IMG/VR virus record: IMGVR_UViG_3300025276_004419
Span: 1-64,000 of that record
DNA from: a virus
DNA length: 64,000 nt
Direction: 5' to 3' (one strand)
The notes beneath the pieces were generated by a model that worked only from the letters and a program-made list of their open reading frames with translations, was not told where the DNA came from and made no database searches. The translations under genes were made by a program, and so were the position numbers. Shown piece after piece: positions 20,024 to 42,196 of this stretch (positions are counted from its first letter, which is position 1; the number at the start of each line of letters is the position of its first letter).

Positions 20024-22573
20024 ATGGCTAGACAATTATTTTACGGGAAATTATCCCCATTTACTCCAATAGGAAATGGTTCAAACTCTTATATTAGAGT
20101 TAGATTTGATGCTGCTACTGATTCTACTACATTAACTAATGTAACAGATGTATCCGGATTCCTAAATATAGATTTTGTACGTGTAGGACAAACATTAGTT
20201 GAAAGTTCAGCATTCCCATCAGGTACAGTTATTACAGCTGTAGATACGAGTGAAAATACTATTACAGTTACTGATTTACCTACAACAGCAGAATCTCAAG
20301 GATTAGGTAGAATTTCTCCTGCTCCTGGTGATTACTATATAGCATCAGCATCTATCACAGATCCTCAAGGTTTAATAAATTTTAATGATATTACAGGTAG
20401 TGCTGATACTGATTATGTTACAGATAGTATTATATACGGTGTTTTAGGACAAGCAGCAGACAGTAGTCAAAATATAATTACTGGGAGATTCCACAAATAT
20501 ACTATTTCAGAAGTATTTTATAGAAACCCAGTAGGGAATGAAGGTTCTATTTATATAGAATGGGGAGAAAAAGATACAGAAGCTAGTAGTGGAGATGAAT
20601 TATATCAATCTAACCAAGCTACAGCAATTGTAGGACTTTCTATTTCAGAATCTTTATCTCCTATATTTACTAGAAACCTTACAGGTATCCAAGATTTAAA
20701 TGTTGGGCAAGAAACAGCTGGTTATCAAATAGAAGTACAAGACTTTTTAGACGATCTATCAGTATCAGATATATTCTATACTGGCTCTTTAGTGCTAGGT
20801 AACGCTGGTAATCTCAATTTCGCAGGTTCAGGTGTCGAAGTGGAAAAGAGCGGTTCGGATGGCGTACTTATTAATATTACTGGCGGAGCTGGTGGTACAT
20901 CAGGTTCATCAGGTTCATCAGGTACATCTGGTATAGATGGTTCAAGTGGTTCATCAGGTACCTCAGGTGCAGATGGCAGCTCAGGAAGTTCAGGTACAAG
21001 TGGCTCATCAGGTTCATCAGGTACTTCAGGAGCAGACGGTAGCTCAGGTTCTTCAGGCACATCAGGTATAGATGGTTCAAGCGGTTCAAGCGGTACTTCA
21101 GGTGCCGATGGTAGTTCAGGATCTTCAGGTACATCCGGAGCCGATGGTTCATCAGGCTCAAGTGGTACATCAGGTAGTTCAGGTTCATCAGGCTCAAGTG
21201 GTACATCAGGTAGTTCAGGTTCATCAGGAACCTCAGGTGCAGATGGTAGTTCAGGAAGTTCAGGTACATCAGGGGCAGACGGTAGCTCAGGCTCAAGTGG
21301 CACTTCAGGTGCAGACGGTTCAAGCGGTTCAAGCGGTTCAAGCGGTACATCAGGTGCTGACGGTTCTTCAGGTTCAAGCGGTACTTCAGGAGCAGATGGT
21401 AGTTCAGGTAGTTCAGGTACTTCAGGTGCCGATGGTTCATCAGGTTCCTCAGGTACTTCAGGTGACGATGGTTCAAGTGGTAGTTCTGGCACATCAGGCA
21501 GTTCAGGTTCTTCAGGAACTTCGGGTGCAGACGGTAGCTCAGGCTCAAGCGGTACTTCAGGTGCGGACGGTTCAAGTGGTTCAAGTGGTTCTTCAGGAAC
21601 TTCAGGTGTAGATGGATCAAGTGGTTCTTCAGGAACTTCTGGAGTGGATGGTTCGAGTGGTTCAAGCGGTACTTCAGGTGCAGATGGTAGTTCAGGTAGT
21701 TCAGGTACAAGTGGTTCATCAGGTTCTTCAGGCACATCAGGCACATCAGGTGCAGATGGTTCATCAGGTTCAAGCGGTACTTCGGGCTCATCAGGTTCAT
21801 CAGGCACTTCAGGTGCAGATGGATCTTCAGGTTCAAGCGGTACTTCAGGTTCATCAGGTTCATCAGGCACATCAGGTGTAGCTGATATCTTAAATAATGC
21901 TGATCATAGACTTACTACAGCAAACGGTATATCAGGAGAATTACAAGCGGAAGCTGATTTTACATTTGACCCTACAGATACTGATAGACCTATTTTAACT
22001 TTAGGTGAAGTAAATAAAGTAGAATCTAAATTTGTAAGTTTTGGACGAACCATAATTAGCGGTTCGGATAGTAGTTCTACCACCCGTGGTTTAGAATTCC
22101 AAAACATTTCAGGTTCTACTTATAATTCTTATGTTAGACACAATGCTGAAATGGAGCTCGAATTATCGAGTAGTGTTGCTATTAATATAGCGGGTATTGT
22201 AAACAGAGGTGTTTCATCAAGTGGTGGTAGTTTAACAACAACTTTAACATATAAAGGTACCATAGGTACTAGTGCTCAAGTTGATGTATTATCAGCAGCA
22301 AATTTATCAATGGATTCTACCGACTATATAGGTCTCGTAGCTGATTATGCTATTGAAACTTCAATAGGTGCTAGAAGATTTGGAACAGTAAAGGTAACAT
22401 TTAATAATACTACATCAACAAACTCCGATATTTCTACTTTAGATCTTGGAAGTAGTACTTCAGCAGTTAGTTTTTCTACTACAGGAGATCCATTAGAATT
22501 ATTTGTAGTAAATAGTGATGCAACTAATACAGTAGACATAGCAATGTCATTTAAATTAATTTCAGTACCTTAA
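20024..22573 (+). CDS. Ser/Thr-rich Gly-X-Y fibre protein 2
   Basis: About 290-aa N-domain, about 330 aa of GSS/GTS/GAD triplets; C-domain shares DY.G.V.DY......G..RFGTV.V with the 22646 ORF. Confidence 0.8.
20894..21883 (+). repeat. coding GSS/GTS/GAD repeats
   Basis: Seen in sequence. Confidence 0.9.
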
Positions 22574-22645: not shown

Positions 22646-24508
22646 ATGGCTAACGAATTAGTAATTAGGGACGGATTAATTTCACTGGGTGGAATTAACT
22701 TTCCTTACAAAGCAGTAACTAGCACATATGCTATTACCGCCTCAGATTACATGGTGGATGCTACCTCTGGTACTTTCACTATTACATTACCCACATCAGT
22801 AGGGGTTGCTGGAAAAATATTTGAGGTTAAAAATAGTGGTGCTGGTACAATTACTGTTGCTACTACTTCAAGTCAAACTATAGATGGTGATCTTACTATT
22901 ACTTTAACTGAAAAACAAAATCTTTCAGTTCAGAGTGATGGTACAAATTGGATTGTAGGTGGAGCTAATGGTACTTCGGGTTCATCAGGAACATCAGGTT
23001 CATCAGGAACATCAGGTTCATCAGGAACATCAGGTAGTTCAGGTTCAAGCGGTACCTCAGGTTCATCAGGAACTTCAGGATCATCAGGAACTTCAGGTTC
23101 ATCAGGTACTTCAGGTAGCTCAGGATCATCAGGTACTAGTGGTTCATCAGGCTCATCAGGTACTAGTGGTTCATCAGGCTCATCAGGTACTAGTGGTTCA
23201 TCAGGAACATCAGGTAGCTCAGGTACTTCAGGTAGCTCAGGTTCAAGTGGTACATCAGGATCATCAGGTTCTTCAGGTACATCAGGTGCAGACGGATCTT
23301 CAGGTTCAAGCGGTACTTCAGGTTCAAGCGGTACTTCAGGATCATCAGGAACTTCAGGTTCAAGCGGTACTTCAGGTAGCTCAGGCTCATCAGGTACTAG
23401 TGGTTCATCAGGAACATCAGGTAGCTCAGGAACATCAGGTAGCTCAGGTAGCTCAGGTACATCAGGTAGCTCAGGTTCTTCAGGTACTTCAGGTTCATCT
23501 GGTACTAGTGGTTCATCTGGTACTTCAGGATCAAGTGGTACATCAGGTAGCTCAGGCTCATCAGGTACTTCAGGATCAGCAGGTAGCTCAGGCTCATCAG
23601 GAACTTCAGGATCGTCAGGAACTTCAGGTTCATCAGGTACTTCAGGATCAAGTGGTTCATCAGGTACTTCAGGATCAAGTGGTTCATCAGGAACTTCAGG
23701 ATCATCAGGAACTTCAGGTTCATCAGGGACTTCAGGTAGTTCGGGTTCAAGCGGTACTTCAGGATCATCAGGTACCTCAGGTTCATCAGGTACTTCAGGA
23801 TCAAGTGGCTCATCAGGTACTTCAGGTGCAGACGGTTCAAGCGGTTCAAGCGGTACTTCAGGTTCATCAGGAACTTCAGGTTCATCAGGTACTTCAGGAT
23901 CAAGTGGTTCATCAGGAACATCAGGATCGTCAGGTACATCAGGATCATCAGGTACATCAGGTAGTTCAGGATCATCAGGTACATCAGGTAGTTCAGGATC
24001 ATCAGGTACTTCAGGATCATCAGGTACATCAGGTAGTTCAGGATCATCAGGTACTTCAGGTGTAGCAGATATCTTAAACGATGGTCTAAATAGAGTAATC
24101 GTTGCTACAGGTACTAGTGGTGTTGTATTAGCTAAATCTAATCATATCTTTACTACTGATAGTTATACTCTTAACGGTGATATTACTAGACAAGGTACTA
24201 ATATTTCAGTTGTAAATGGTGCTAACGGAAACGTACTCGTAGCTTCAGGAACTGATTATATGGGTGCTGTTGTAGACTACTCATTTGAATCCTTAGTTGG
24301 ATCTCAAAGATTCGGTACTGTTAGAGTTAATTTCGATTCAGCAACTGCTGTAATGGATGAAACTTCAACAACTGATCTAAATGGTAGTACTGATACAGTA
24401 GTATTTAGTGTTGCAGTAGCAGGAGGTAATATGACTCTTAGTGTTGCTAATGGTATAGGTAGTACTATTGAATTAGTAGCTGTAGTTAATTTAATATTTA
24501 GAAACTAA
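22646..24508 (+). CDS. Ser/Thr-rich Gly-X-Y fibre protein 3
   Basis: About 120 consecutive triplets, almost all GSS/GTS; N-terminal FTITLP...G....VKNSG domain. Confidence 0.8.
   Translation: MANELVIRDGLISLGGINFPYKAVTSTYAITASDYMVDATSGTFTITLPTSVGVAGKIFEVKNSGAGTITVATTSSQTIDGDLTITLTEKQNLSVQSDGTNWIVGGANGTSGSSGTSGSSGTSGSSGTSGSSGSSGTSGSSGTSGSSGTSGSSGTSGSSGSSGTSGSSGSSGTSGSSGSSGTSGSSGTSGSSGTSGSSGSSGTSGSSGSSGTSGADGSSGSSGTSGSSGTSGSSGTSGSSGTSGSSGSSGTSGSSGTSGSSGTSGSSGSSGTSGSSGSSGTSGSSGTSGSSGTSGSSGTSGSSGSSGTSGSAGSSGSSGTSGSSGTSGSSGTSGSSGSSGTSGSSGSSGTSGSSGTSGSSGTSGSSGSSGTSGSSGTSGSSGTSGSSGSSGTSGADGSSGSSGTSGSSGTSGSSGTSGSSGSSGTSGSSGTSGSSGTSGSSGSSGTSGSSGSSGTSGSSGTSGSSGSSGTSGVADILNDGLNRVIVATGTSGVVLAKSNHIFTTDSYTLNGDITRQGTNISVVNGANGNVLVASGTDYMGAVVDYSFESLVGSQRFGTVRVNFDSATAVMDETSTTDLNGSTDTVVFSVAVAGGNMTLSVANGIGSTIELVAVVNLIFRN
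22961..24067 (+). repeat. coding GSS/GTS repeats (about 123 triplets)
   Basis: 1107 bp with no visible register break. Confidence 0.9.
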
Positions 24509-24630: not shown

Positions 24631-26442
24631 ATGGCAAACGAATTTAAAATAAAGAATGGCCTGATTATTTCAGGCACTCTTCCCACAGCTCCTTCCGAAA
24701 ATACTGTATTAGTAATAGATTCAGACGGAGTAGTAAAAACAAAAGAAGCAGCAGCATCCTCAGGATCTTCTGGTACGTCAGGTAGTTCAGGTACATCCGG
24801 ATCAAGTGGTTCATCAGGTACATCAGGTATAAACGGTACAAGTGGATCAAGTGGTTCATCAGGTTCATCAGGCACTTCAGGTACTTCAGGTTTATCTGGA
24901 GTAAATGGTGCAGATGGTACTAATGGTACTTCAGGTACAACAGGTACAGGTGGTACTTCAGGTTCTTCAGGTTCATCAGGAACTTCTGGTTCATCAGGAA
25001 CTTCTGGTTCATCAGGTACTTCAGGTTCATCAGGAACTTCAGGAAACGCTGGTACATCAGGCTCAAGCGGTACTTCAGGTAGCTCAGGTACATCAGGTTC
25101 TTCAGGTTCATCTGGTACAAGTGGTACTTCAGGATCATCAGGCACTTCAGGATCATCAGGTACTTCAGGTTCATCAGGTACTTCAGGATCATCAGGTTCA
25201 AGTGGTACTTCAGGATCATCAGGCACTTCAGGATCATCAGGCACTTCAGGATCATCAGGTTCATCTGGTACAAGTGGCACATCAGGTACTGATGGTGTCG
25301 GTGGTTCATCAGGTAGCTCAGGAACATCTGGAACCAGCGGTTCATCAGGAACATCAGGGAGCTCAGGTACCTCAGGTGTAGATGGTAATAATGGTACTTC
25401 AGGATCAAGCGGTAGTTCAGGTACATCAGGAAGCTCAGGCACATCAGGAAGTTCAGGCACATCAGGAAGCTCAGGTACCTCAGGTTCTTCAGGTAGTTCA
25501 GGAACATCAGGCACATCAGGTAGCTCAGGATCTTCAGGTACTAGTGGTACATCAGGTTCATCAGGTACATCGGGTTCAAGCGGTACTTCAGGTTCAGCTA
25601 CTATTGCTAATTTAGGTAATAATAGAATAACTACATCAACAGGTGTGCAAGGTGCATTAAATGCAGAAGCTAATTTGTTATTTGATGGTAGTACATTAAC
25701 CGTAACAGGTGGTTTAACTGTAACAGGCAATACTACTTTAGGTAATGCTGGTACAGACGAAATTACACTAACAGGAAAAGTAGTTACTGATATTTTAACA
25801 GATGCCGCAGGAAATACTATAGGTGATGCTACTAATCCTTGGGAAATTATTGCTAATACAGTAAAAGCTAATTTAACTACAGGTGTTGATAACTCTGTAG
25901 TAATCAAAGATGCAGATGGTTTCCTAAAAACAGATGAGATTGATTCTCGTGTTTGGGGTTCAAGTTTAGTAGATGCTACAACAGGTGCTGCTACTAGAAT
26001 AGCAACATTTACAGATGCTAATTCAATTGAAGGAGATGCAAATGTTACCTGGGATGGTAATGAATTCCTTGTTCAAGGTGCATTAACCGCAAATGAGAAA
26101 AACTTTGATATACCACATCCATCTAAAGAAGGATGGAGACTTCGTCACTCTGTTATGGAGGGACCTGAAAGAGGTGTGTATGTTAGAGGAAAGATAAAAG
26201 ACAATAAAACTATTACACTTCCAGATTACTGGAAAGATTTAGTATACGAAGATAGTATATCAGTTCAATTAACAGCTATAGGCAAATCACGTGCTCATCA
26301 TGTGGTTAACGTAAATACCTCTACCATCACAATAGGTTGTACGTTTGGTTCTATTAACGCATATTACCACGTATATGCTGAAAGAAAAGCAGATACTCCG
26401 GTATTAGTTGAATACGAAGTAACAGAAAACATAACTAAGTAA
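24631..26442 (+). CDS. Ser/Thr-rich Gly-X-Y fibre protein 4 with phage fibre C-terminal domain
   Basis: GSS/GTS repeats; C-terminal KNFDIPHP...LRHS.MEGPE.GVYVRG...LPDYW...VYAERK domain typical of phage fibre C-termini (possible assembly chaperone). Confidence 0.8.
   Translation: MANEFKIKNGLIISGTLPTAPSENTVLVIDSDGVVKTKEAAASSGSSGTSGSSGTSGSSGSSGTSGINGTSGSSGSSGSSGTSGTSGLSGVNGADGTNGTSGTTGTGGTSGSSGSSGTSGSSGTSGSSGTSGSSGTSGNAGTSGSSGTSGSSGTSGSSGSSGTSGTSGSSGTSGSSGTSGSSGTSGSSGSSGTSGSSGTSGSSGTSGSSGSSGTSGTSGTDGVGGSSGSSGTSGTSGSSGTSGSSGTSGVDGNNGTSGSSGSSGTSGSSGTSGSSGTSGSSGTSGSSGSSGTSGTSGSSGSSGTSGTSGSSGTSGSSGTSGSATIANLGNNRITTSTGVQGALNAEANLLFDGSTLTVTGGLTVTGNTTLGNAGTDEITLTGKVVTDILTDAAGNTIGDATNPWEIIANTVKANLTTGVDNSVVIKDADGFLKTDEIDSRVWGSSLVDATTGAATRIATFTDANSIEGDANVTWDGNEFLVQGALTANEKNFDIPHPSKEGWRLRHSVMEGPERGVYVRGKIKDNKTITLPDYWKDLVYEDSISVQLTAIGKSRAHHVVNVNTSTITIGCTFGSINAYYHVYAERKADTPVLVEYEVTENITK
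24763..25599 (+). repeat. coding GSS/GTS repeats
   Basis: Seen in sequence. Confidence 0.9.
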
Positions 26443-26445: not shown

Positions 26446-29400
26446 ATGGCTAAAAACGTTCAAATAGTCCCACCATCAGGTAGTTTAGAATTTACAGATA
26501 GCGCTGCTCCAAACAGTGTTAAAATGGAAATTAACGCTTCTGGAGAAATGATAACCTCAGCAGGGGGGAACACTCTGATGACTATGAGCTCAGGTGAGAT
26601 AGATGTTGATAATAATACAAAACTCCTTATTCCAAAAGGTGATGAAGGCTCAGCTCCAACAGAGGCAGGCGCCTTATTTTTTGATGAAGGGGGTAATGAA
26701 TTAAGAATAGGTGATGGTAGTGGTACTGTTACTGGTGGTGGTGAAAAAGGTGCCAAAGGTAGTACAGGAGCAATTGGTCCAATAGGTCCAATTGGTATAT
26801 CCGTCATTGGTCCCATTGGAGCAACAGGTGCACAAGGTCCTATAGGAAATATAGGTAATATTGGTGTACAAGGTCCTATTGGTCCAATTGGTACATCACT
26901 TATAGGTGCTATTGGTCCTAAAGGTAGTATAGGCCCAATTGGTAACATTGGAATACAAGGCCCTATTGGTCCTACAGGTGCCGGTGGTACAGGAATTATT
27001 GGTCCTATCGGTCCTAAAGGTAGTATAGGTAATATTGGTCCTATAGGTAATATTGGAACTACTGGACCTATTGGTCCTATTGGTAATTCACCTATTGGTC
27101 CTATTGGAAACACAGGAGCACAAGGTCCTATTGGTAATATTGGAATACAAGGTCCTATTGGTCCAATTGGTTTAATTGGTACATCAGTCATAGGTCCAAT
27201 CGGAAATACAGGAGCTCAAGGCCCACGAGGTTTAATAGGCCCATTAGGTCCTAAAGGTAGCATAGGTCCAATTGGTACATCTGTTATTGGCCCAATTGGA
27301 GCAACAGGAGCACAAGGTCCACGAGGTTTAATAGGCCCATTAGGTCCTAAAGGTTCTATTGGTCCAATTGGTGTATCAGTCATAGGTCCTATTGGGGCAA
27401 CAGGAGCACAAGGTCCTATTGGTCTTATAGGTGCTATTGGTCCCAAAGGTACTATTGGCCCAATAGGTACATCAGTCATAGGCCCAATCGGTCCTAAAGG
27501 TACTATAGGTAATATTGGAAATATTGGAAATATAGGTCCACAAGGCCCTATTGGTCCCATAGGAAATTCACCTATTGGTCCTATTGGAAATACTGGAGCA
27601 CAAGGTCCTAGAGGTTTAATTGGAATACAAGGTCCAACAGGACCAATCGGTCCTATTGGTACTTCAGTCATTGGTCCTATAGGGGCAACAGGAGCACAAG
27701 GTCCTAGAGGTTTAATTGGAATACAAGGTCCAACAGGTCCAATTGGTCCAATTGGTACGTCTGTTATTGGCCCTATAGGTAATACAGGAGCACAAGGTCC
27801 TAGAGGTTTGATTGGTATACAAGGTCCTACGGGACCAATTGGTCCAATCGGTACATCGGTTATTGGTCCTATAGGAATCACAGGAGCACAAGGCCCTAGA
27901 GGTTTGATTGGTATACAAGGTCCTACTGGACCAATTGGTCCAATCGGTACATCGGTTATAGGCCCAATAGGTCCTAAAGGTACTATTGGTAATATAGGAA
28001 ATATAGGTCCACAAGGTCCAATCGGCCCTATTGGAACATCAGTCATAGGTCCAATAGGTCCAACAGGAGCACAAGGACCACGAGGTCCAATCGGTATACA
28101 AGGTCCAATCGGTCCTATTGGAACATCAGTCATAGGTCCAATAGGTCCAACAGGAATACAAGGCCCTAGAGGTCCAATCGGTATACAAGGTCCTACTGGA
28201 CCAATTGGTCCTATTGGTACATCAGTTATAGGCCCAATAGGTCCAACAGGAATACAAGGTCCTAGAGGCCCAATCGGTATACAAGGTCCAATCGGTCCTA
28301 TTGGAACATCGGTTATAGGCCCAATCGGGAATACAGGAGCACAAGGACCACGAGGTCCAATTGGTATACAAGGTCCAATAGGTCCTATAGGTCCAATTGG
28401 TACATCAGTCATAGGTCCAATCGGTCCAACAGGAATACAAGGCCCTAGAGGTTTAATAGGAATACAAGGTCCAATCGGTCCAATCGGTCCTATCGGAACA
28501 TCTGTTATAGGCCCGCAAGGTCCAATTGGAAATATTGGTATACAAGGTCCTAGAGGTTTAATTGGTCCAATCGGTCCTAAAGGTACTACAGGAAGTTCAC
28601 CTATTGGTCCTATTGGTCCACGAGGTCCTATTGGTATACAAGGCCCAATTGGTCCTAAAGGTACTACGGGTGCCATTGGTCCTATTGGTAACTCACCTAT
28701 TGGTCCTATTGGTCCACGAGGTCCTATTGGTATACAAGGCCCCATTGGTCCTAAAGGTTCTACCGGCGCTATTGGTCCTATTGGTAACTCACCTATTGGT
28801 CCTATTGGTCCACAAGGTCCTATTGGTCCACAAGGTCCAATCGGTCCTAAAGGTTCTACCGGCGCCATTGGTAATATTGGTAACTCTCCAATTGGCCCAC
28901 AAGGTCCTAGAGGTCCTATTGGTATACAAGGCCCAATTGGTCCTAAAGGTTCTACCGGCGCCATTGGTCCTATTGGTAACTCTCCAATTGGCCCACAAGG
29001 TCCTAGAGGTCCTATTGGTATACAAGGCCCAATTGGTCCTAAAGGTTCTACCGGCGCTATTGGTCCTATTGGTAACTCACCTATTGGTCCCCAAGGTCCT
29101 ATAGGCCCTACAGGAGCACAAGGTCCTAGAGGTTCAATTGGTCCAATCGGTCCTAAAGGTAGTATAGGTATTTCACCTATTGGTCCTATTGGTCCACAAG
29201 GTCCTATTGGTCCAGGTGGAGCTATTGGTGTACAAGGTCCTATTGGTCCACAAGGTCCTATTGGTCCAACGGGTGCTCAAGGTCCTATTGGTCCAGGTTC
29301 AACTGCTATTGGTCCCATAGGTCCAACAGGAGATATAGGTGGAATAGGTCCAATTGGAGCATCTGTTATTGGTCCAATTGGTCCACAAGGTCCTATTGGT

Positions 29401-29670
29401 CCTGGAGGTGCTGAAGGTGCTCAAGGAACAAATGGTACTACAGGTCCTATTGGTCCTGGAGGTCCTTCCGGAAGTTCACCAATTGGTCCACGAGGTCCAA
29501 TCGGTCCTTTAGGTCCTATAGGATCACAAGGTAATATTGGTCCACGAGGTCCTCAGGGTCCTACAGGTGCTGATGGTAACCCAGGAGGTATTACTACAAA
29601 CTTTACTATCACTGCTTTAAACGGAGATTTTGATTTTGTATTCTCAAATGGAACTTTACAGTCCATATAG
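26446..29670 (+). CDS. Pro/Ile-rich collagen-like fibre protein A
   Basis: About 950 aa of GPI/GPK/GPQ/GIQ triplets with recurring GTSVI/GNSPI interruptions. Confidence 0.85.
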   Translation: MAKNVQIVPPSGSLEFTDSAAPNSVKMEINASGEMITSAGGNTLMTMSSGEIDVDNNTKLLIPKGDEGSAPTEAGALFFDEGGNELRIGDGSGTVTGGGEKGAKGSTGAIGPIGPIGISVIGPIGATGAQGPIGNIGNIGVQGPIGPIGTSLIGAIGPKGSIGPIGNIGIQGPIGPTGAGGTGIIGPIGPKGSIGNIGPIGNIGTTGPIGPIGNSPIGPIGNTGAQGPIGNIGIQGPIGPIGLIGTSVIGPIGNTGAQGPRGLIGPLGPKGSIGPIGTSVIGPIGATGAQGPRGLIGPLGPKGSIGPIGVSVIGPIGATGAQGPIGLIGAIGPKGTIGPIGTSVIGPIGPKGTIGNIGNIGNIGPQGPIGPIGNSPIGPIGNTGAQGPRGLIGIQGPTGPIGPIGTSVIGPIGATGAQGPRGLIGIQGPTGPIGPIGTSVIGPIGNTGAQGPRGLIGIQGPTGPIGPIGTSVIGPIGITGAQGPRGLIGIQGPTGPIGPIGTSVIGPIGPKGTIGNIGNIGPQGPIGPIGTSVIGPIGPTGAQGPRGPIGIQGPIGPIGTSVIGPIGPTGIQGPRGPIGIQGPTGPIGPIGTSVIGPIGPTGIQGPRGPIGIQGPIGPIGTSVIGPIGNTGAQGPRGPIGIQGPIGPIGPIGTSVIGPIGPTGIQGPRGLIGIQGPIGPIGPIGTSVIGPQGPIGNIGIQGPRGLIGPIGPKGTTGSSPIGPIGPRGPIGIQGPIGPKGTTGAIGPIGNSPIGPIGPRGPIGIQGPIGPKGSTGAIGPIGNSPIGPIGPQGPIGPQGPIGPKGSTGAIGNIGNSPIGPQGPRGPIGIQGPIGPKGSTGAIGPIGNSPIGPQGPRGPIGIQGPIGPKGSTGAIGPIGNSPIGPQGPIGPTGAQGPRGSIGPIGPKGSIGISPIGPIGPQGPIGPGGAIGVQGPIGPQGPIGPTGAQGPIGPGSTAIGPIGPTGDIGGIGPIGASVIGPIGPQGPIGPGGAEGAQGTNGTTGPIGPGGPSGSSPIGPRGPIGPLGPIGSQGNIGPRGPQGPTGADGNPGGITTNFTITALNGDFDFVFSNGTLQSI
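26740..29589 (+). repeat. coding collagen repeats, including four tandem 96-bp units
   Basis: GGAGCACAAGG begins at 27595, 27691, 27787 and 27883. Confidence 0.9.
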
Positions 29671-29703
29671 AATTAAAACTTGGTATAGCAGGTAAAATAA
29701 TTT

Positions 29704-29712
29704 ATATTTATA
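29704..29712 (+). promoter_or_regulatory. putative late promoter
   Basis: ATATTTATA heading the collagen B/modification operon. Confidence 0.6.
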
Positions 29713-29730
29713 TAAAACAAATAATCATCA

Positions 29731-32700
29731 ATGGCTGACAATGTTCAAATAATCCCCTCCACTGGAGAATTAACTTTTAGTAAGGATGGTGTAGGGTATA
29801 ATTGGGAATTAGTTTATGATAACGCATTGTTAACATGGTCTGATACCCAAGCAGGTGTAATTGCTCTACAATTCTCTAGCGATTCAATGCTAATGGGGGG
29901 TTCCACAGGGTTATTTATAATACCTACCCTCCCTACAACCAGTATAGGAACATTAACTGAAGGTCAAATAGTTTTTAATACTACGACTAAAAGTTTAATA
30001 GTAGGGGGATCAAATGGTAATGTAAGTTTACAAGGTCAACCCGGTGCTACAGGTAATCAAGGTGCTATTGGTCCAATTGGTCCAAACGCACCAACAGGTC
30101 CAATTGGTCCTAAAGGTGTAACTGGTGCTATCGGTCCTATTGGTTTAATAGGCCCAGAAGGTTTAATTGGTAATAAAGGCCCAAATTCACCTGCAGGTCC
30201 TATTGGTCCTAGAGGTCCAGGTGGTGTAATTGGTCCTAATGGACCTGAGGGTTTAATAGGAAATAAAGGACAAAAAGGTAGTAATTCTCCAATAGGTGCT
30301 ATTGGCCCTAAAGGTATTATAGGTGCTATTGGGAACATAGGTAATATAGGCCCTGGTGGTTTAATAGGTGCTAAAGGTCCTATTGGTGTTATAGGCGCTA
30401 TAGGTCCTAAGGGTATAACAGGTGTTATTGGTAATATAGGTCCTGAAGGTTTAATAGGTAATAGAGGTCCAATCGGTCCTGATTCTCCAATAGGTCCAAT
30501 TGGTCCTAAAGGAGTAACAGGTGTAATTGGACCACAAGGTCCTATTGGTCCAAGAGGTGTAATAGGTGCTATTGGTCCTAATTCCCCAATAGGTCCAATT
30601 GGTCCTAAAGGTATAACTGGTATTATTGGACCACAAGGTCCTATAGGACCAAGAGGTGTAATAGGTGCTATTGGTCCTAATTCTCCAATAGGTCCAATTG
30701 GTCCTAAGGGTGTAACTGGTGCTATTGGAAATAATGGTCCTATTGGTCCTAGAGGTCCAGGTGGTGCTATTGGTCCTAACTCACCAATAGGTCCAATCGG
30801 TCCTAGAGGTCCAGGAGGATCTATTGGCCCCATTGGTTTAATAGGACCAGAAGGTTTAATAGGTGCTAAAGGTCCTATTGGTGTTATAGGTGCTATAGGT
30901 CCAAAAGGTATAACAGGTGCAATTGGACCACAAGGTCCTGAAGGTTTAATAGGTTTAATAGGTGCTAAAGGTCCTATCGCAATAACAGGCCCAATTGGCC
31001 CTAAAGGCGTTACTGGCGCTATAGGTCCACAAGGTCCTGAAGGTTTAATAGGTTTAATAGGTGCTAAAGGCCCTATCGCTATAACGGGTCCTATTGGTCC
31101 TAAAGGTGTAACAGGTGCAATTGGACCACAAGGTCCTGAAGGTTTAATTGGTAACCAAGGTGCTAAAGGTCCTAATGCTGTAACAGGCCCAATAGGTCCT
31201 AAAGGTATAACAGGTCCTAGAGGACCTCAAGGTCCTGAAGGTTTAATTGGTAACCAAGGTGCTAAAGGCCCCATAGCTATAACAGGCCCAATCGGTCCTA
31301 GAGGTCCGGGTGGTAGTATAGGTCCTATTGGTCCCGAAGGTTTAATAGGTGCCAAAGGTCCTAACGCTATAGTTGGTCCTATAGGTCCTAAAGGTGTAAC
31401 AGGTGCAATAGGTCCACAAGGTCCTGAAGGTTTAATAGGTAACAGAGGACCCGTAGCTATAACAGGTCCAATTGGTCCTAAAGGAGTAGAAGGTTCTAGA
31501 GGGCCTCAAGGTCCCGAAGGTTTAATTGGTAACCAAGGTGCTAAGGGTCCTATCGCTATAACAGGTCCAATTGGTCCTAAAGGTGTAACAGGTGCAATAG
31601 GTCCACAAGGTCCTGAAGGTTTAATAGGTAATAGAGGTCCAGTAGCTGTAATAGGTCCAATTGGTCCTAAAGGTATAACAGGTCCTAGAGGTCCACAGGG
31701 TCCCGAAGGTTTAATTGGTAACCAAGGTGCTAAGGGTCCTATCGCTATAACAGGTCCAATTGGTCCTAAAGGTGTAACAGGTGCTATTGGGCCTCAAGGT
31801 CCTGAAGGTTTAATTGGTAACCAAGGTGCTAAAGGTCCTAATGCTGTAACAGGTCCTAGGGGTCCTATAGGTAATATAGGCCCAGAAGGTTTAATAGGCC
31901 CCCAAGGTCCTATAGGTCCTCGTGGTATAACAGGTGCTACAGGTGCTATAGGTGCTATTGGTCCTATTGGTCCACAGGGACCAGAAGGTTTAATAGGTAA
32001 CAGAGGTCCAAATGGTAATCAAGGTCCTATAGGCCCAACAGCTCCTATTGGTGCTATAGGTCCACTAGGTCCACAAGGTCCTGAAGGTCTAATAGGTGCT
32101 AGAGGTCCAAATGGTAATCAAGGTCCTATAGGCCCAACAGCTCCTATTGGTGCTATAGGTCCTAGAGGTTCTAGAGGTCCCGAAGGTTTAATAGGTCCTA
32201 TAGGTCCTGGTGGTAATCAAGGTCCTATAGGTCCCATTGGTGCTATAGGTGCTAGAGGTCCTATTGGACCACAAGGTCCTGAGGGTTTAATAGGTCCTAT
32301 AGGTCCTGGTGGTAATCAAGGTCCTATAGGTCCCATTGGTGCTATAGGTGCTAGAGGTCCTATTGGACCACAAGGTCCTGAGGGTTTAATAGGTCCTAGA
32401 GGTCCTGGTGGTAACCAAGGTCCTATAGGACCTATTGGTGCTACAGGTCCTGAAGGTTTAATAGGTCCTAAAGGAAATACTGGAGCTCAAGGTCCACAAG
32501 GTCCTGAAGGTCCTAGAGGTCCTATCGGAGCAACAGCCCCTATTGGTGCTATAGGTCCAGAGGGTTTAATAGGTCCTAAAGGTGCTAGAGGCCCAGAGGG
32601 TCTCATAGGTCCTAGAGGTCCAATTGGTCCTAAAGGTAATACAGGTGCAATAGGTCCAAAAGGTCCTGAAGGTCCTATTGGACCAAAAGGTTCTAGAGGT

Positions 32701-33855
32701 CCAATAGGTAACAAAGGCCCTATTGGTGCCACAGGCCCTATTGGTAGAGAAGGTTTAATAGGTAATAAAGGTGCTAAAGGTCAAAAAGGTCAACCTCGTG
32801 ATTTTGATGGTCCTATAGGTCCTATTGGTCTTAAAGGACCCACTGGTGCTATTGGTGCTATTGGACCACAAGGTCCTATTGGTCCTGCCCGAAATAGCAG
32901 TGCTGCTCCAATAGGTCCTGAAGGTCCTAGAGGTCCTATAGGTGCTACTGGAGCTAATGCTACACCAGCAGGAATTGCTGGTAACCCGGTTATAGATACT
33001 ATTGAAGATGGTGCTGGTTATACCTGGAATCTTGAATTTGTTGATGGATATCTTACAAAAGCGGATCCAGCTTATGAAAACTATCGTTATTATAGTAATG
33101 ATGGTGTTAATGATTATGTAACTGGTGCTTGGAGTGGCCAAACAGGATTAGTTCAAAATGATTGGAGTTTTAGCTTCTGGGTTAGAAATAATGAAGTTGA
33201 TAAAAATAATATGACATTTTGGGATTTTTGTGTTGACCCTGTAGGTTCAGCAAATAATAATAATAGAATATTTTTAAATTATGCTGCTAATTTTAATAGA
33301 TTAATATTTAGAGTTAGAACTAATTCTACAAACTTTGATTGTAATTATGCTTTAAATAGTGGAGGAAGTAATGGTACTATAACAGGTGTAACAAATACTA
33401 CTTCAGGATGGAGAGCAGCCCAAAGGGGTAATACAAATGCTGCAGGTTTTACTCACTTAGCAGGTACTTATGATGCTTCTGAAACAGTAGCTAGCAATGC
33501 ACTTAAATTATATTGGAATGGTTCCTCACTAACTACAGTTACTGTAAATTCAGGTACCCGTACTAATGGGACTTATGATAATTTGACATTATGTACCAAC
33601 ACATCAGGTGTTACAGGTACAGCAAATGCACATATAGACATGGATGAGTTTACTTGGTTTGATAAATCCTTAAGTTCAACAGAAGTAGGAGCCTTATACG
33701 CTAGTGGAGTAATTAAAGCAGCTAAAGAAAGTGGAAATACGGGTGTGGTAAATGCTATAGAGGAAGCAGCTAGTTTTGACCAAAATACCTCAGCTACTGT
33801 TAAAAATGCTAAATGGTCTGCTTCTATTATAGGAGGTACTACTCCAGCATACTAA
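29731..33855 (+). CDS. Pro/Ile-rich collagen-like fibre protein B with C-terminal LamG/ConA-like domain
   Basis: About 985 aa of Gly-X-Y, then WSFSFWV...HLAGTYD...LYWNG...DEFTWFDKSLS..EV..LY (LamG-like). Confidence 0.85.
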   Translation: MADNVQIIPSTGELTFSKDGVGYNWELVYDNALLTWSDTQAGVIALQFSSDSMLMGGSTGLFIIPTLPTTSIGTLTEGQIVFNTTTKSLIVGGSNGNVSLQGQPGATGNQGAIGPIGPNAPTGPIGPKGVTGAIGPIGLIGPEGLIGNKGPNSPAGPIGPRGPGGVIGPNGPEGLIGNKGQKGSNSPIGAIGPKGIIGAIGNIGNIGPGGLIGAKGPIGVIGAIGPKGITGVIGNIGPEGLIGNRGPIGPDSPIGPIGPKGVTGVIGPQGPIGPRGVIGAIGPNSPIGPIGPKGITGIIGPQGPIGPRGVIGAIGPNSPIGPIGPKGVTGAIGNNGPIGPRGPGGAIGPNSPIGPIGPRGPGGSIGPIGLIGPEGLIGAKGPIGVIGAIGPKGITGAIGPQGPEGLIGLIGAKGPIAITGPIGPKGVTGAIGPQGPEGLIGLIGAKGPIAITGPIGPKGVTGAIGPQGPEGLIGNQGAKGPNAVTGPIGPKGITGPRGPQGPEGLIGNQGAKGPIAITGPIGPRGPGGSIGPIGPEGLIGAKGPNAIVGPIGPKGVTGAIGPQGPEGLIGNRGPVAITGPIGPKGVEGSRGPQGPEGLIGNQGAKGPIAITGPIGPKGVTGAIGPQGPEGLIGNRGPVAVIGPIGPKGITGPRGPQGPEGLIGNQGAKGPIAITGPIGPKGVTGAIGPQGPEGLIGNQGAKGPNAVTGPRGPIGNIGPEGLIGPQGPIGPRGITGATGAIGAIGPIGPQGPEGLIGNRGPNGNQGPIGPTAPIGAIGPLGPQGPEGLIGARGPNGNQGPIGPTAPIGAIGPRGSRGPEGLIGPIGPGGNQGPIGPIGAIGARGPIGPQGPEGLIGPIGPGGNQGPIGPIGAIGARGPIGPQGPEGLIGPRGPGGNQGPIGPIGATGPEGLIGPKGNTGAQGPQGPEGPRGPIGATAPIGAIGPEGLIGPKGARGPEGLIGPRGPIGPKGNTGAIGPKGPEGPIGPKGSRGPIGNKGPIGATGPIGREGLIGNKGAKGQKGQPRDFDGPIGPIGLKGPTGAIGAIGPQGPIGPARNSSAAPIGPEGPRGPIGATGANATPAGIAGNPVIDTIEDGAGYTWNLEFVDGYLTKADPAYENYRYYSNDGVNDYVTGAWSGQTGLVQNDWSFSFWVRNNEVDKNNMTFWDFCVDPVGSANNNNRIFLNYAANFNRLIFRVRTNSTNFDCNYALNSGGSNGTITGVTNTTSGWRAAQRGNTNAAGFTHLAGTYDASETVASNALKLYWNGSSLTTVTVNSGTRTNGTYDNLTLCTNTSGVTGTANAHIDMDEFTWFDKSLSSTEVGALYASGVIKAAKESGNTGVVNAIEEAASFDQNTSATVKNAKWSASIIGGTTPAY
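30034..32988 (+). repeat. coding collagen repeats
   Basis: GPI/GPK/GPE/GLI triplets. Confidence 0.9.
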
Positions 33856-37823: not shown

Positions 37824-37826
37824 TAA

Positions 37827-40139
37827 ATGAAAGAACCAAAAATTTTTGGACATGGTCCTTATATAGGAACAACAGGTTATAACAACCATACACGTGATTT
37901 TTTTAGGGGTCTATCTAACCACCACCCATTAAAATTTCGTAACTTTACTGTAGGTAGTAGTTGGGAAGGTATGAATAAAGAACCACATAATGGGGAATCT
38001 TACCTCCTTGATATAGATAAAAATATACTCCACCAACAAACATACTACACCTCAGAGGGTGATATGGTTGATGGTGAAATATACCCTAATAATGGAGAAA
38101 ATTTTAACCATAATGTAAATTTAATTTTGATGGAAACTAACCATCATTATTTTTTTCACAATTATAAAGGACCTAAAATAGCTTATAATGTTTGGGAATC
38201 TACGAAACAACCGGAAGCATTTTTTAATAAATTATTAGAATTTGATCAAATCTGGGTCCCATCACAATGGCAGGCAGATTGTACTATTGAACAAGGTGCT
38301 GATCCTGATAAAGTAAAAGTAGTCCCTGAGGGGGTAGATACAGAAACATTTTTTCCTGAAGATCCTCAAACTACATTAGACTATGTAGATGGTCGTTTTA
38401 AATTTATTCACTTTGGAAGGTGGGATTATAGAAAATCTACAAAAGAAATTATTAAAACTTTCTTAAAAGAATTTAAACCCGAAGAACCCGTAGATTTAAT
38501 TTTATCTATTGATAATATGTGGGGCAAAGATATGGATAGTTTTGAAACAACTGAAGAAAGACTAAAACATTATGGTTTTACGGACGAACGTTTAAAAATT
38601 AAACATTTTCCATCAAGAGAAGATTATATTACGTATTTAAAAAATGGTCATGTATTTTTGTCTTGTGCTCGTAGTGAAGGTTGGAATTTACCTTTAATTG
38701 AAGCCATGGCTTGTGGTACCCCATCTATATACTCAGCGGATTCAGCTCAAATGCAATTTGCATCAGGTAAGGGTCTACCAGTAAAAATATTAGGCGAAAA
38801 ACCTGCAACATCTAATGATTATGGTCGCTATACTATGAGTGATCTTCCAGGAAATTACCCAGAACCCGATTTCGAAGATTTAGCTATCGTAATGCGTGAT
38901 GCATTTGAAAATTATACTGACTATAAAAAACGTGCTATAGAAGAAGCAAAGTTGATTCATCGTGATTTTAATTGGAAAAATGTAGCTCAAATTGGTAGTA
39001 ATACTATTAAAGAATTTATGGATAATTATGTAGCCCCTGCTATTAAACCTAATACTATTAATGTTTCGTATTTAGAGGGTCCTAAAGTAGAAATTTTAGG
39101 GGACAACCCTGAAGAATATACAATAGAATTTATTAACGGGGATACTAATGAAGTAGTATTTAGTGATAAAATTACTAATGGAATGTGGACCACGTGTAAC
39201 AAAAAATATTATATTCCTTGGATTATAAAAGTTAATGGAGAGATAGTAAATAAATTTAGTTTAAAAGATAAAAAGGTTTTAATAGGTTTAGATTCAAATT
39301 CAATAGGAGACACTATAGCATGGACTCCATATGCTGTTGAATTTGCTAAAAAGCATAATTGTCAAGTCCTTTTATCTACCCACCATAACTCATGGTTTGA
39401 GGGCGTTGATGCTTATAAAGATATTAAATTTATTACCCCTGGGGATTTTGAACCTTGCCACGCTATGTATAGAATTGGATGGTTTAAAGATGATGAGGGT
39501 TTTTGGAAAGATTTTAATAAACACCCTAACCAAGTTAATTTATACCCATTACAACAAACTGCTGCTGATATTTTAGGTTTAGAATTTAAAGAATTAAATC
39601 ATGGGTTAGTATTTAATAAAAATGCAACCCCAATTAAGTCTAAATACGTAGTTATAGGACCAGAATCAACAGCAGGGTGTAAAGAGTGGCCTAGACAAAA
39701 TTGGAACGTTTTAGCTAAATTACTAAATCAACAAGGATATACAGTAATAACTTTAACTAAAAACCCACTTAAAATCCCAGGTACGATTAATGTTTACAAT
39801 AAACCTTTTGATGTTTTAGCTAATTATTTACTTAATGCTGATTTATTTATAGGTTTAAGCTCCGGATTATCTTGGTTTAATTGGGGGTTAGGTAAAAAAA
39901 CAGTAATGATGAATGGTTTTACCTCTAAAGAACATGAATTCCAAACTAAAGTTACTCGTATACGTGAGGAAAGTGTTTGTAATTCTTGTTGGGTTAATCC
40001 AAATTTTAAATTTGATGCTGGGGATTGGGATTGGTGTCCTATATGGAAAGGAACAGATAAACAGCATACGTGTATGAAATCCGTCTCACCAACTCAAGTT
40101 TTTAAACAAGTTAAACAAATTTTAAATAGTAAAAAATAA
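37827..40139 (+). CDS. GT4-like glycosyltransferase fused to TibC/AAH-type (BAHT) protein O-heptosyltransferase-like domain
   Basis: N-half GT4 (GRWDYRK, RSEGWNLPLIEAMACGTP). C-half GDTIAWTPYA..F..KH.C, FIGLSSGLSW, CNSCW...FD..DWDWCP...TDKQHTC, matching the recalled TibC iron-finger Cys pattern. Confidence 0.85.
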   Translation: MKEPKIFGHGPYIGTTGYNNHTRDFFRGLSNHHPLKFRNFTVGSSWEGMNKEPHNGESYLLDIDKNILHQQTYYTSEGDMVDGEIYPNNGENFNHNVNLILMETNHHYFFHNYKGPKIAYNVWESTKQPEAFFNKLLEFDQIWVPSQWQADCTIEQGADPDKVKVVPEGVDTETFFPEDPQTTLDYVDGRFKFIHFGRWDYRKSTKEIIKTFLKEFKPEEPVDLILSIDNMWGKDMDSFETTEERLKHYGFTDERLKIKHFPSREDYITYLKNGHVFLSCARSEGWNLPLIEAMACGTPSIYSADSAQMQFASGKGLPVKILGEKPATSNDYGRYTMSDLPGNYPEPDFEDLAIVMRDAFENYTDYKKRAIEEAKLIHRDFNWKNVAQIGSNTIKEFMDNYVAPAIKPNTINVSYLEGPKVEILGDNPEEYTIEFINGDTNEVVFSDKITNGMWTTCNKKYYIPWIIKVNGEIVNKFSLKDKKVLIGLDSNSIGDTIAWTPYAVEFAKKHNCQVLLSTHHNSWFEGVDAYKDIKFITPGDFEPCHAMYRIGWFKDDEGFWKDFNKHPNQVNLYPLQQTAADILGLEFKELNHGLVFNKNATPIKSKYVVIGPESTAGCKEWPRQNWNVLAKLLNQQGYTVITLTKNPLKIPGTINVYNKPFDVLANYLLNADLFIGLSSGLSWFNWGLGKKTVMMNGFTSKEHEFQTKVTRIREESVCNSCWVNPNFKFDAGDWDWCPIWKGTDKQHTCMKSVSPTQVFKQVKQILNSKK

Positions 40140-40143
40140 CATA

Positions 40144-40155: not shown

Positions 40156-40407
40156 ATGGAAAAAGTTTCGTTAAGCAAAGAAGAAATTCAAATTATTAAG
40201 GACATCCAACAAACAGAACAAGAAATTGTATCCCAATTAGGTCAAATCGAATATCAAATTTTATCTCTTAATTCACAAAAAGAAGATTTAAAAAATGCTA
40301 TTAAAGATATTAACAATAAAGGGAATAAATTAGGAGAAGATCTTCAACAAAAATATGGAGACGGATCTATTAACATAGAAACAGGAGAATTCACGAAATC
40401 GAATTAA
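40156..40407 (+). CDS. small coiled-coil hypothetical protein
   Basis: 83 aa, heptad pattern, KYGDGSINIETGEF end. Confidence 0.55.
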   Translation: MEKVSLSKEEIQIIKDIQQTEQEIVSQLGQIEYQILSLNSQKEDLKNAIKDINNKGNKLGEDLQQKYGDGSINIETGEFTKSN

Positions 40408-40425
40408 TTTTTGATCCTCTCTTGA

Positions 40426-40434
40426 ATATTTATA
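40426..40434 (+). promoter_or_regulatory. putative late promoter
   Basis: ATATTTATA before sheath. Confidence 0.65.
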
Positions 40435-40456
40435 ACAAAATAATAATTACAACACA

Positions 40457-42196
40457 ATGGCAGAAACTTTAATATCACCCGGTGTATTAGCAAGAGAGAA
40501 TGACCAGTCATTTATTACTCAACAACCCGTACAAGTAGGTGCTGCAATCGTAGGTCCTGCAGTTAAAGGTCCAGTAGAAATACCTACAATTGTTACATCA
40601 TACAGTGATTATCAAAACAGATTTGGAACTACTTTTGACAGCGGTAGTGAAGTATTTAGTTACTTTACTTCTATTGCTGCTTATAATTATTTCAATAACG
40701 GAGGTAATACTTTACTAGTAAGTAGAGTAGTATCAGGTTCAAGCTCTTGGGCGTATGCAACTGCTTCAATTGTTGATGGTAATCCATTTGCGAGTTCTTC
40801 ATTTGAATTAGAAGCCATTGATAAAGGTGAAATTTGGAACAATACAGGTTCAATGGTATCTGGCTCATTAGTTTCAGGTTCATCCGATAATGTTAGATGG
40901 CAAGTAGTGGGTCGTAATGAAGCATCAGGAACTTTTTCATTAGTAATTAGAAGAGGAAATGATACAACAAACAACCCAGTTGTCTTAGAACAATTTAATA
41001 ACTTATCTTTAGATCCAAATCAACCAAATTTCATTTCAGCTGTAATTGGTGATACTAAATTTAATTACAACGAAGCTGAAAATTACTTAGAAGTATCAGG
41101 TTCATATGCAAACGGTTCTAGATACGTAAGAGTTAAAAAAGTAAATCAACCAACCCCAAATTATTTAGATAATGCTGGAAATGCTCAAGAGCAATTTACA
41201 GGTTCTATCCCAGCATTAGGGTCAGGTTCTATAGGTGGTGCTTTCCAAGCAGGTGTAGGTAGTCTCATTAATGCTACTATAGCTGGAGGTGGTAATTACT
41301 ACGAAAAAGCAGGTACTGGTGCTTCAGCTGTAACTCAGGGTTTGGTTAGTACTGATTATAATAATATGTTAAGTCTATTATCTAATCAAGATGATTATAG
41401 ATTCAATGCACTACTTACCCCAGGTTTGATAGACAAAGTTCACGCTTCTCAAACAACAACAGCAATTAATAATACTCAAGGTAGAGGAGATAGCCTTTAT
41501 ATTTTAGATCCTGTACTATATGGTTCAACCATTGCTACTACAACAGGTCAAGCTAATGCTAGGAATACTTCATACGCAGCTGTATACTGGCCTTGGTTAC
41601 AGACATTCGAACCTGATTCCGGTAAAAATGTTTGGATCCCAGCGTCAACAATGATCGGGGGAGTTTACGCATTTAACGACAATGTAAGCGAGCCATGGTT
41701 TGCCCCAGCGGGTATCAACAGAGGGGGATTAACCAACGTAATTCGCCCGGAAAGAAAGTTGTCTCAAGCAAATAGAGATACTTTATACGAAGCAAATGTT
41801 AACCCAATAGCTTCATTCCCTGGAACAGGAACAGTAGTATATGGTCAGAAAACACTACAACGTCAAGCAAGTGCTTTAGACAGAGTAAATGTTAGAAGAT
41901 TATTAATTGCTCTTAAATCTTACATTAGCCAAATTGGTCAAACTTTAGTATTTGAACAAAATACAGCAGCAACAAGAAATAACTTCTTAGCTGCAGTAAA
42001 CCCATATTTGGAAACAGTCCAACAAAGACAAGGTTTATACGCGTTTAAAGTAGTAATGGATGATAGCAATAACACTCCAGATGTAATCGATAGAAACCAA
42101 TTAATAGGTGCTATTTACTTACAACCTACTAGAACAGCAGAATTCATTTACCTAGACTTTAATGTATTACCTACGGGAGCAACTTTCCCAGCGTAA
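40457..42196 (+). CDS. tail sheath protein (T4 gp18-like)
   Basis: SPGVLARE.D, PWFAPAG..RG, VYGQKTL, LDRVNVRRLL, PTRTAEFI. Confidence 0.95.
   Translation: MAETLISPGVLARENDQSFITQQPVQVGAAIVGPAVKGPVEIPTIVTSYSDYQNRFGTTFDSGSEVFSYFTSIAAYNYFNNGGNTLLVSRVVSGSSSWAYATASIVDGNPFASSSFELEAIDKGEIWNNTGSMVSGSLVSGSSDNVRWQVVGRNEASGTFSLVIRRGNDTTNNPVVLEQFNNLSLDPNQPNFISAVIGDTKFNYNEAENYLEVSGSYANGSRYVRVKKVNQPTPNYLDNAGNAQEQFTGSIPALGSGSIGGAFQAGVGSLINATIAGGGNYYEKAGTGASAVTQGLVSTDYNNMLSLLSNQDDYRFNALLTPGLIDKVHASQTTTAINNTQGRGDSLYILDPVLYGSTIATTTGQANARNTSYAAVYWPWLQTFEPDSGKNVWIPASTMIGGVYAFNDNVSEPWFAPAGINRGGLTNVIRPERKLSQANRDTLYEANVNPIASFPGTGTVVYGQKTLQRQASALDRVNVRRLLIALKSYISQIGQTLVFEQNTAATRNNFLAAVNPYLETVQQRQGLYAFKVVMDDSNNTPDVIDRNQLIGAIYLQPTRTAEFIYLDFNVLPTGATFPA

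Follow-up and report, generated by a model that had tools for sequence, protein, structure and literature searches.

A BAHT-type glycosyltransferase fused to a GT4 domain in a marine T4-like phage and its association with proline-free collagen-like fibres

The 64,000-nucleotide DNA stretch considered here (positions 1 to 64,000 of IMG/VR virus record IMGVR_UViG_3300025276_004419, hereafter the window) encodes, on the plus strand at 37827..40139 and as a single open reading frame (ORF), a 770-amino-acid (aa) protein in which an N-terminal GT4 glycosyltransferase domain is fused to a C-terminal domain of the BAHT (bacterial autotransporter heptosyltransferase) type, the family of TibC, an Escherichia coli enzyme that heptosylates adhesin serines. 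With moderate confidence, we read this GT4-BAHT protein as an enzyme of virion fibre O-glycosylation, in which priming of Ser/Thr residues in the phage's proline-free collagen-like fibres falls to the BAHT domain and extension of the glycan to the GT4 domain. The initial annotation of the window had proposed both the identity of the enzyme and its link to the fibres; the identity stands, and the link is supported by co-occurrence across phage lineages, with few exceptions (G023, G038, and LR756504, described below). To our knowledge, BAHTs have been described only as virulence-associated enzymes of Proteobacteria that add heptose to autotransporter adhesins, and our literature search found no paper on phage BAHTs or on their link to collagen-like fibres.

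Judged by a curated hidden Markov model (HMM), key residues, and modelled fold, the C-terminal half of the protein is a true BAHT. The search against the autotransporter O-heptosyltransferase family that the initial annotation had suggested was run, and NCBIfam TIGR04414 (hepto_Aah_TibC, an equivalog) matched with a score of 234.3 bits, above its cut-off of 200 (E 2e-69; a search of the whole genome gave 235.3 bits), the match spanning aa 411–765 and profile positions 12–374 of 374. Pfam Glyco_transf_9 also scores above its cut-off in this half (aa 596–702, 30.9 bits; cut-off 22), TibC_1st gives a weak match at aa 430–469, and phmmer against PDB sequences aligns aa 430–762 with TibC residues 40–383 (4rap_A, E 4.4e-34). 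The half divides into a TibC-type N-terminal beta-barrel (aa ~411–480; 39057..39266, plus strand), which aligns with TibC residues ~40–97 and with bacterial BAHTs and has modelled beta strands at 410–476, and a catalytic domain with an iron finger (aa ~481–770; 39267..40136, plus strand), which is assigned from its match to TIGR04414 and its conserved residues. In a Foldseek comparison, the AlphaFold2 model (mean predicted local distance difference test score, pLDDT, 83.5) matches TibC 4rap at E 2.5e-26, with a target-normalised template modelling (TM) score of 0.84. The fusion behind a GT4 domain, also claimed initially, holds as well: the N-terminal domain (aa 1–400; 37827..39026, plus strand), of the retaining GT-B type, matches Pfam Glycos_transf_1 upstream of the BAHT half (aa 189–306, 34.7 bits; cut-off 26.4), Pfam Glyco_trans_1_4, likewise above cut-off, and the glycosyltransferase family phrog_2170 (1.6e-28). 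Foldseek relates it to the chlorovirus glycosyltransferase 3oy2, MshA, PimA, and SdgB, GT4 structures that were matched at E 3e-12 and weaker.

Residues were compared with TibC through an HMMER alignment, a MAFFT alignment that took in many phage homologues and four bacterial BAHTs linked to autotransporters, and an alignment of 34 family members, and their roles were taken from the TibC structure, where D110 is the catalytic base, T226 and K230 bind the beta-phosphate, and W305 contacts heptose O4 (PMC4358343). The motifs from which a TibC-like C-terminal half had been recognized can each be located (GDTIAW at aa 494, FIGLSSGLSW at 674, VCNSCW at 717, WDWCP at 734, and KQHTC at 745) and align with their TibC counterparts. 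D495, within IGDTIAW, corresponds to D110 and is invariant in the 34 homologues and throughout the divergent phage sequences that were aligned, while T615 and K619 correspond to T226 and K230, and W683 to W305, all three being conserved here and across phage homologues. The four iron-finger cysteines listed in the initial annotation are likewise present and invariant, C718, C721, C737, and C749 corresponding to TibC C339, C342, C358, and C370, and metal binding is predicted for them. In the GT4 half, E284 and E292, which have the E-x7-E spacing of GT4 enzymes, are invariant in the 34 homologues. Because of these conserved catalytic residues, the superposition of the model on TibC, and the invariant E284/E292 pair, both domains look catalytically competent.

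If both domains are active, the division of labour between them has to be considered. It is unlikely that their roles are reversed or parallel, with GT4 priming the fibre serines in the manner of SdgB and GtfA, which prime serine-rich repeats in Gram-positive adhesins, and BAHT extending the glycan or modifying other sites, the target still being the fibre. SdgB (7ec1) is indeed among the Foldseek matches to the N-terminal half, and GT4 recurs in divergent phages as constantly as the BAHT domain does (N-terminal Glycos_transf_1 was found in 9 of 9 divergent fusions scanned, with Pfam Glyco_transf_9 also scoring in 7 of the 9). However, the match to SdgB stands among many unspecific GT4 matches of 11–15% identity, standalone BAHT-only and tandem BAHT-BAHT proteins without GT4 exist, and it is for the BAHT family that direct O-glycosylation of serines in repeats has been demonstrated (PMC4358343).

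Under the favoured reading, in which the BAHT domain would prime and the GT4 domain would extend, the proposed acceptors are four proline-free collagen-like proteins of the Gly-Ser/Thr-Ser type encoded on the plus strand at 17314–26442, namely fibre A (17314..19902; 862 aa, 153 Gly-X-Y triplets), fibre B (20024..22573; 849 aa, 111 triplets), fibre C (22646..24508; 620 aa, 123 triplets, with Ser/Thr making up 96% of positions X and Y), and fibre D (24631..26442; 603 aa, 93 triplets). All four, with 93–153 triplets each, match Pfam Collagen PF01391 at 131–178 bits, and a triple helix is predicted for them. Position Y is Ser in 399 of the 480 triplets, and Pro and Lys are both absent from the tracts (0 and 0). 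The earlier statement that the fibres offer hundreds of Ser/Thr sites agrees with the count, which is 805 Ser/Thr together.

The co-occurrence test that had been called for was also run, and BAHT enzymes and proline-free Ser/Thr fibres were found to travel together across very different phage lineages, so that the proposed link was not refuted. In the whole records behind the BAHT loci, Ser/Thr-triplet arrays occur wherever upstream sequence exists; a 176-kb complete relative, for example, has 883 pattern hits just upstream of the flank that had been fetched. Among 12 divergent BAHT-positive phages (BAHT domain identity 31–57%; five complete genomes, 66–548 kb), a Ser/Thr Gly-X-Y ORF lies within 10 kb of the enzyme gene in 10, often adjacent to it and with up to 883 triplets. 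In the cultured Microcystis phage Mel-JY01 (PP395634.1), in which the GT4-BAHT homologue is 1226 aa long and contains an FkbM insert, a 1016-aa ORF with ~200 Gly-Ser/Thr-Ser triplets is located at 2–3049 (plus strand), 1.7 kb upstream of the homologue. This ORF is unannotated, the record instead having two minus-strand hypothetical proteins there, and it runs off the start of the linear record, at whose opposite end it may continue. Flavobacterium phage immuto has no BAHT, no glycosyltransferase cluster before its sheath gene, and no hit to the Ser/Thr pattern.

The same association appears when the search starts from the fibres. A protein-level search of 50,697 phage records was needed for the enzyme because blastn of the GT4-BAHT gene against these genomes gave no match, and it returned a BAHT match in 4 records. 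Two of these, LR756501 and LR756503, both with a GT4-BAHT homologue, are the only genomes of the collection matched by blastn of fibre C repeat DNA, and LR756501.1, a 735-kb uncultured phage, has 888 hits to an 8-triplet Ser/Thr pattern, scattered over ~103–106 kb, ~400 kb, and 587.6 kb. In a reverse sample, an arbitrary set of IMG/VR records matching a Ser/Thr-triplet DNA pattern, of which 43 were searchable, 19 of the 43 encode a BAHT (18 of the 19 above cut-off), against a background of 4 in 50,697 phage records. When only records at least 90% complete are considered, all six with at least 75 in-frame Ser/Thr triplets are BAHT-positive, whereas the five that are BAHT-negative have 0–12 in-frame triplets, and the DNA pattern hit is regarded as spurious in these five because so few real triplets underlie it.

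Gene neighbourhoods separate this enzyme from a second collagen-modifying system. Downstream of the Ser/Thr fibres, the window encodes two Pro/Lys-type collagen-like proteins of 1074 and 1374 aa (26446..33855, plus strand; the second gene at 29731–33855), followed by three plus-strand genes at 34125–37823 that form a separate module for lysyl/prolyl hydroxylation and glycosylation of collagens: a fusion of GT4, GT25, and 2-oxoglutarate (2OG) oxygenase domains (34125–36455) and a 2OG-Fe(II) oxygenase (36460–37074), both assigned by Pfam/PHROG profile matches, and a 249-aa protein (37074–37823) that matches phrog_13607 only and has no Pfam or NCBIfam match. The 249-aa protein occurs solely where the GT4-GT25-hydroxylase and 2OG oxygenase genes are found as well, and because of this distribution it seems to be part of the Pro/Lys collagen module and not of the BAHT module. 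In the Pro-type collagens, Pro is found almost only at X (320 of 593 triplets), and in the second of them (29731–33855), the sole one counted for Lys, all 38 tract Lys residues are at Y. Collagen lysyl hydroxylases act on position Y, and the placement of Lys in this protein therefore fits the neighbouring hydroxylase-GT25 fusion.

The comparison of 80 related viral loci that were fetched points the same way. The three module genes are gained or lost as a unit and vary independently of the GT4-BAHT gene. In loci that have them, the ORF directly upstream of the GT4-GT25-2OG oxygenase gene is a Pro/Lys collagen, both in the window and in all 13 loci with enough upstream sequence. In ten loci that have neither the hydroxylase module nor a Pro-type collagen (L016, L017, L018, L019, L021, L025, L029, L043, L079, and L083), Ser/Thr Gly-X-Y fibre genes abut GT4-BAHT directly. 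In a third locus type, FkbM and CmcI-like methyltransferases intervene (L078): at L078:4287–8780, in the 176-kb complete relative (G001), two FkbM-type methyltransferases, one CmcI/rhamnosyl-O-methyltransferase-like protein, and two other ORFs lie between the 2OG oxygenase and GT4-BAHT, a gene content that suggests O-methylated glycans in this phage. Because of these locus types, the hydroxylase module is seen to track the Pro/Lys collagens while GT4-BAHT stays with the Ser/Thr fibres, and the Pro/Lys collagens are probably substrates of the neighbouring hydroxylase module, not of the BAHT.

These loci also bear on the alternative that the enzyme acts on other phage proteins (the Pro/Lys collagens, the sheath, or the capsid) and that its linkage to the fibres merely reflects a shared late structural operon, which we consider quite unlikely. 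The gene in the window does adjoin the Pro/Lys collagens and the sheath gene and lies 11 kb from the Ser/Thr fibres, and the tracts of the Pro-type collagens contain 30–98 Ser/Thr of their own. Loci devoid of any Pro-type collagen, however, keep GT4-BAHT directly beside Ser/Thr fibres, the arrays of LR756501 co-occur with the enzyme gene despite lying 180–480 kb from it, and the pairing is repeated in unrelated phage lineages with different structural modules.

As for the donor in the proposed fibre glycosylation, ADP-heptose is the likeliest candidate on present sequence grounds, and heptose is plausible as the transferred sugar in this phage. The window contains no sugar-nucleotide genes. 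Outside it, the same genome encodes an HldA-like heptose-7-phosphate kinase (105803–106576; TIGR02198, 125 bits), an HldD-like ADP-heptose 6-epimerase (106566–107381; TIGR02197, 183 bits), the start of which is overlapped for 11 bases by the HldA-like gene, and, 15 kb beyond this pair, an HldC-like adenylyltransferase (122342–122803; TIGR02199, 95 bits); for each of the three genes, no other NCBIfam profile scores nearly as well as the one named. The stereo-selectivity position of the family is P300 in TibC and S294 in Aah, and Aah takes both ADP-D,D- and ADP-L,D-heptose (PMC4358343). Since the corresponding residue here is S678, a Ser as in Aah, either D,D- or L,D-heptose would fit. Elsewhere, LR756501.1 has a near-cut-off HldA-like kinase (306 bits), and a gene of Mel-JY01 annotated as "cytidylyltransferase like protein" was considered, together with its neighbours, as a heptose pathway and rejected, none having an NCBIfam match.

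Remodelling of the host surface (lipopolysaccharide (LPS), O-chain, or a host adhesin) by an auxiliary gene that would block superinfection is very unlikely to be the function, for although pelagimyophage host-recognition clusters contain glycosyltransferases and rfaE genes that have been interpreted in that way (PMC7029224), GT9 relatives are LPS heptosyltransferases, and the heptose-pathway-like genes of the phage would also suit LPS core remodelling, the BAHT half scores 234 bits, above cut-off, on the protein-serine BAHT equivalog and only 28 bits on the LPS heptosyltransferase I profile, the BAHT-specific beta-barrel and iron finger are retained, and presence of the gene tracks a phage-encoded protein class and not host taxa (Microcystis is the host of Mel-JY01, and Flavobacterium that of the cultured phage closest by sheath protein).

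Several points weigh against the fibre-glycosylation reading itself. The tie between enzyme and fibres is one of association, many of the co-occurrences were seen among related phages and do not count as independent, and a collagen-like triple helix bears no structural resemblance to the strand-loop-strand element that bacterial BAHTs glycosylate. Two pattern-hit records, G023 (84% complete, with 84 Ser/Thr triplets inside an ORF longer than 2000 aa) and G038 (77% complete, with Gly-Pro-Thr-type triplets), have no BAHT even at E ≤ 1; that the enzyme gene was cut off at a contig end was considered and rejected for both, neither array being within 15 kb of an end. Conversely, LR756504 has a BAHT-only gene and no Ser/Thr array. 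On the donor side, all heptose-pathway matches fall below the curated cut-offs, GmhA is absent from all ten BAHT-positive phage genomes searched, neither GmhA nor GmhB was found in this genome (the sole one searched for GmhB), HldA-like and HldC-like genes were detected in only 4 and 3 of the ten, respectively, and the BAHT-negative immuto also has an HldD-like gene. The enzyme departs from TibC as well. In TibC, R286 contacts adenine N1, which explains the specificity for ADP, and the R286A mutant is inactive (PMC4358343); here the residue is replaced by L664, nearly all phage homologues have Val, Ile, or Leu at this position, and Arg is kept among them only in LR756501, so nucleotide recognition differs from that of TibC. 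In addition, the beta-hairpin thumb whose tip (F265/V266) joins TibC dimers into a ring-shaped dodecamer (PMC4358343) is shorter by 8–9 residues, tip included, in the clade of the window, and the processive ring mechanism of TibC may therefore not apply; the deletion is shorter in Mel-JY01, and the second domain of tandem BAHT-BAHT proteins has a full-length thumb. All three rival explanations are nonetheless less well supported than the fibre-glycosylation reading.

The mechanism that we propose is as follows. The two-domain glycosyltransferase would be made late in infection, alongside the virion tail genes. Its C-terminal BAHT domain would transfer a sugar from a nucleotide sugar to Ser/Thr hydroxyls, with D495 as the catalytic base, on the phage's own proline-free Gly-Ser/Thr-Ser fibres (four genes at 17314–26442, ~800 Ser/Thr), after which the fused GT4 domain would add a second sugar. 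The supply of ADP-heptose may be helped by the HldA-, HldC-, and HldD-like genes of the phage, and relatives may add O-methyl groups through fused or adjacent FkbM methyltransferases. The resulting glycan coat probably would stabilise or protect fibres that have neither proline nor hydroxyproline. Glycosylated Thr stabilises the triple helix of vent-worm cuticle collagen. A broader proposal, which is possible but on balance doubtful, is that the BAHT family is primarily phage-borne, with the glycosylation of proline-free fibres as its native job and dense O-glycans replacing hydroxyproline in triple-helix stabilisation, and that the E. coli enzymes are a narrow offshoot recruited to beta-helical adhesins.

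The distribution of the family is relevant to this proposal. Among proteins of similar length, at least 1437 from metagenomes are related to the 770-aa protein at E < 1e-5. The best 120, almost all of them 755–775 aa long, have the same Pfam architecture and at least 60% identity, and more than 100 metagenomic proteins of that architecture are 60–99% identical to it. A close relative is encoded on 130 IMG/VR viral contigs. Many of these proteins are named "autotransporter strand-loop-strand O-heptosyltransferase" by the automatic annotation of the Joint Genome Institute (JGI). In the window and the 80 related loci, the neighbours of the BAHT gene are collagen-like fibre genes and the tail sheath gene, with no AIDA/TibA-type autotransporter. 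Among the metagenomic relatives there are also tandem BAHT-BAHT proteins of 652–662 aa without GT4 and standalone BAHT-only proteins of 362–373 aa, some of the standalone and tandem forms being on contigs longer than 100 kb, and an ankyrin-repeat-BAHT fusion and a GT4-FkbM-BAHT fusion (982 aa) exist as well (variant proteins P0123, P0138, P0153, and P0112, tandem forms included). The largest divergent fusions add FkbM, GT32-like, or GT25 domains, and FkbM-bearing relatives reach 1379–1527 aa. A maximum-likelihood tree of 33 BAHT domains unites the four bacterial enzymes linked to autotransporters in a single branch (support 100/100), and the phage enzymes are far more diverse than this branch. 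With midpoint rooting, the bacterial branch nests among phage enzymes, beside the one with the highest TIGR04414 score; since the root of the tree is not established, we claim no direction of transfer.

The window belongs to a 130-kb IMG/VR record estimated to be 80% complete, and the phage is an uncultured marine T4-like phage. The head, neck, and tail genes of the window are arranged in T4-like synteny (terminase, portal, prohead protease, Gp23 capsid, and tail sheath), and by sheath protein the nearest cultured relatives are immuto (52% identity) and Mel-JY01 (48%). On the plus strand directly downstream of the GT4-BAHT gene, a small conserved ORF (83 aa; 40156–40407) is followed by the tail sheath gene (together 40156..42196). 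This downstream synteny is conserved, the GT4-BAHT gene being just upstream of the small ORF and the sheath and tube genes in all 80 related loci, either directly or with an insert of up to ~3 kb. The 83-aa ORF itself has a match at the same place in ~70 of the 80 loci and weak, sub-threshold Pfam matches only. A promoter and terminator scan of 26000–42500 gave fewer sites than shuffled controls and is thus uninformative on operon structure.

Taken as a whole, the BAHT family emerges here as a widespread phage enzyme, with those 1437 or more metagenomic proteins and carrier records of 66 kb to 735 kb. What the window newly contributes is the contrast between hydroxylase and BAHT modules, the differences at Arg286 and in the thumb, and the phage's own heptose-pathway-like genes. 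If the fibre-glycosylation reading is true, many environmental phages carry heavily O-glycosylated tail fibres, which would bear on host recognition, stability in water, and fibre annotation; BAHTs would have a second natural class of acceptors, useful for the glyco-engineering of repeat proteins; and the fibres would be a test case for the stabilisation of imino-acid-free triple helices by sugars. As one carrier, Microcystis phage Mel-JY01, is in culture, the question can be tested directly.

Related systems offer partial parallels. Virus-encoded glycosylation of virions occurs in mycobacteriophages (capsid and tail), in chlorovirus PBCV-1 (A064R, a multi-domain glycosyltransferase and methyltransferase), and in Mimivirus (L230 and collagen-like fibrils); as in the phage proposed here, these viruses use their own glycosyltransferases for their own structural proteins, with multi-domain glycosyltransferase/methyltransferase polypeptides comparable to the FkbM-bearing relatives. 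We know of none of these virus systems that uses a BAHT-type enzyme or Ser/Thr Gly-X-Y acceptors, and L230-like chemistry presumably corresponds to the neighbouring gene at 34125–36455, not to the GT4-BAHT gene. BclA of the Bacillus anthracis exosporium has collagen-like Gly-Pro-Thr repeats with O-linked rhamnose-anthrose oligosaccharides and is similarly a microbial collagen-like filament with Thr in its triplets and heavy O-glycosylation by dedicated enzymes, but the enzymes and sugars are other ones, its repeats contain proline, and it is a spore filament and not part of a virion. SdgA/SdgB, which act on the Ser-Asp repeat proteins of Staphylococcus aureus (SdgB transferring O-linked N-acetylglucosamine), and GtfA/GtfB of the streptococcal serine-rich repeat adhesins share the principle that GT4-type GT-B enzymes modify serines by the hundred in low-complexity repeats and that the glycans are then extended step by step, whereas their targets are adhesins of Gram-positive cells with repeats that are not collagen-like, and they have no BAHT domain. 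The closest counterparts are the bacterial BAHTs, TibC with TibA in enterotoxigenic E. coli and Aah with AIDA-I in diffusely adhering E. coli, which act on the autotransporter beta-helix. The phage enzyme has the same fold and domain order (beta-barrel, GT-B core, and Cys4 iron finger; PDB 4RAP and 4RB4), and its proposed acceptor is again a set of many serines on a long repetitive protein encoded nearby. Unlike them, it is virus-borne, fused behind GT4, and altered by the change of Arg286 to Leu and a truncated thumb, and while the bacterial genes lie directly upstream of AIDA-type genes, the phage gene is linked to proline-free collagen-like fibres.

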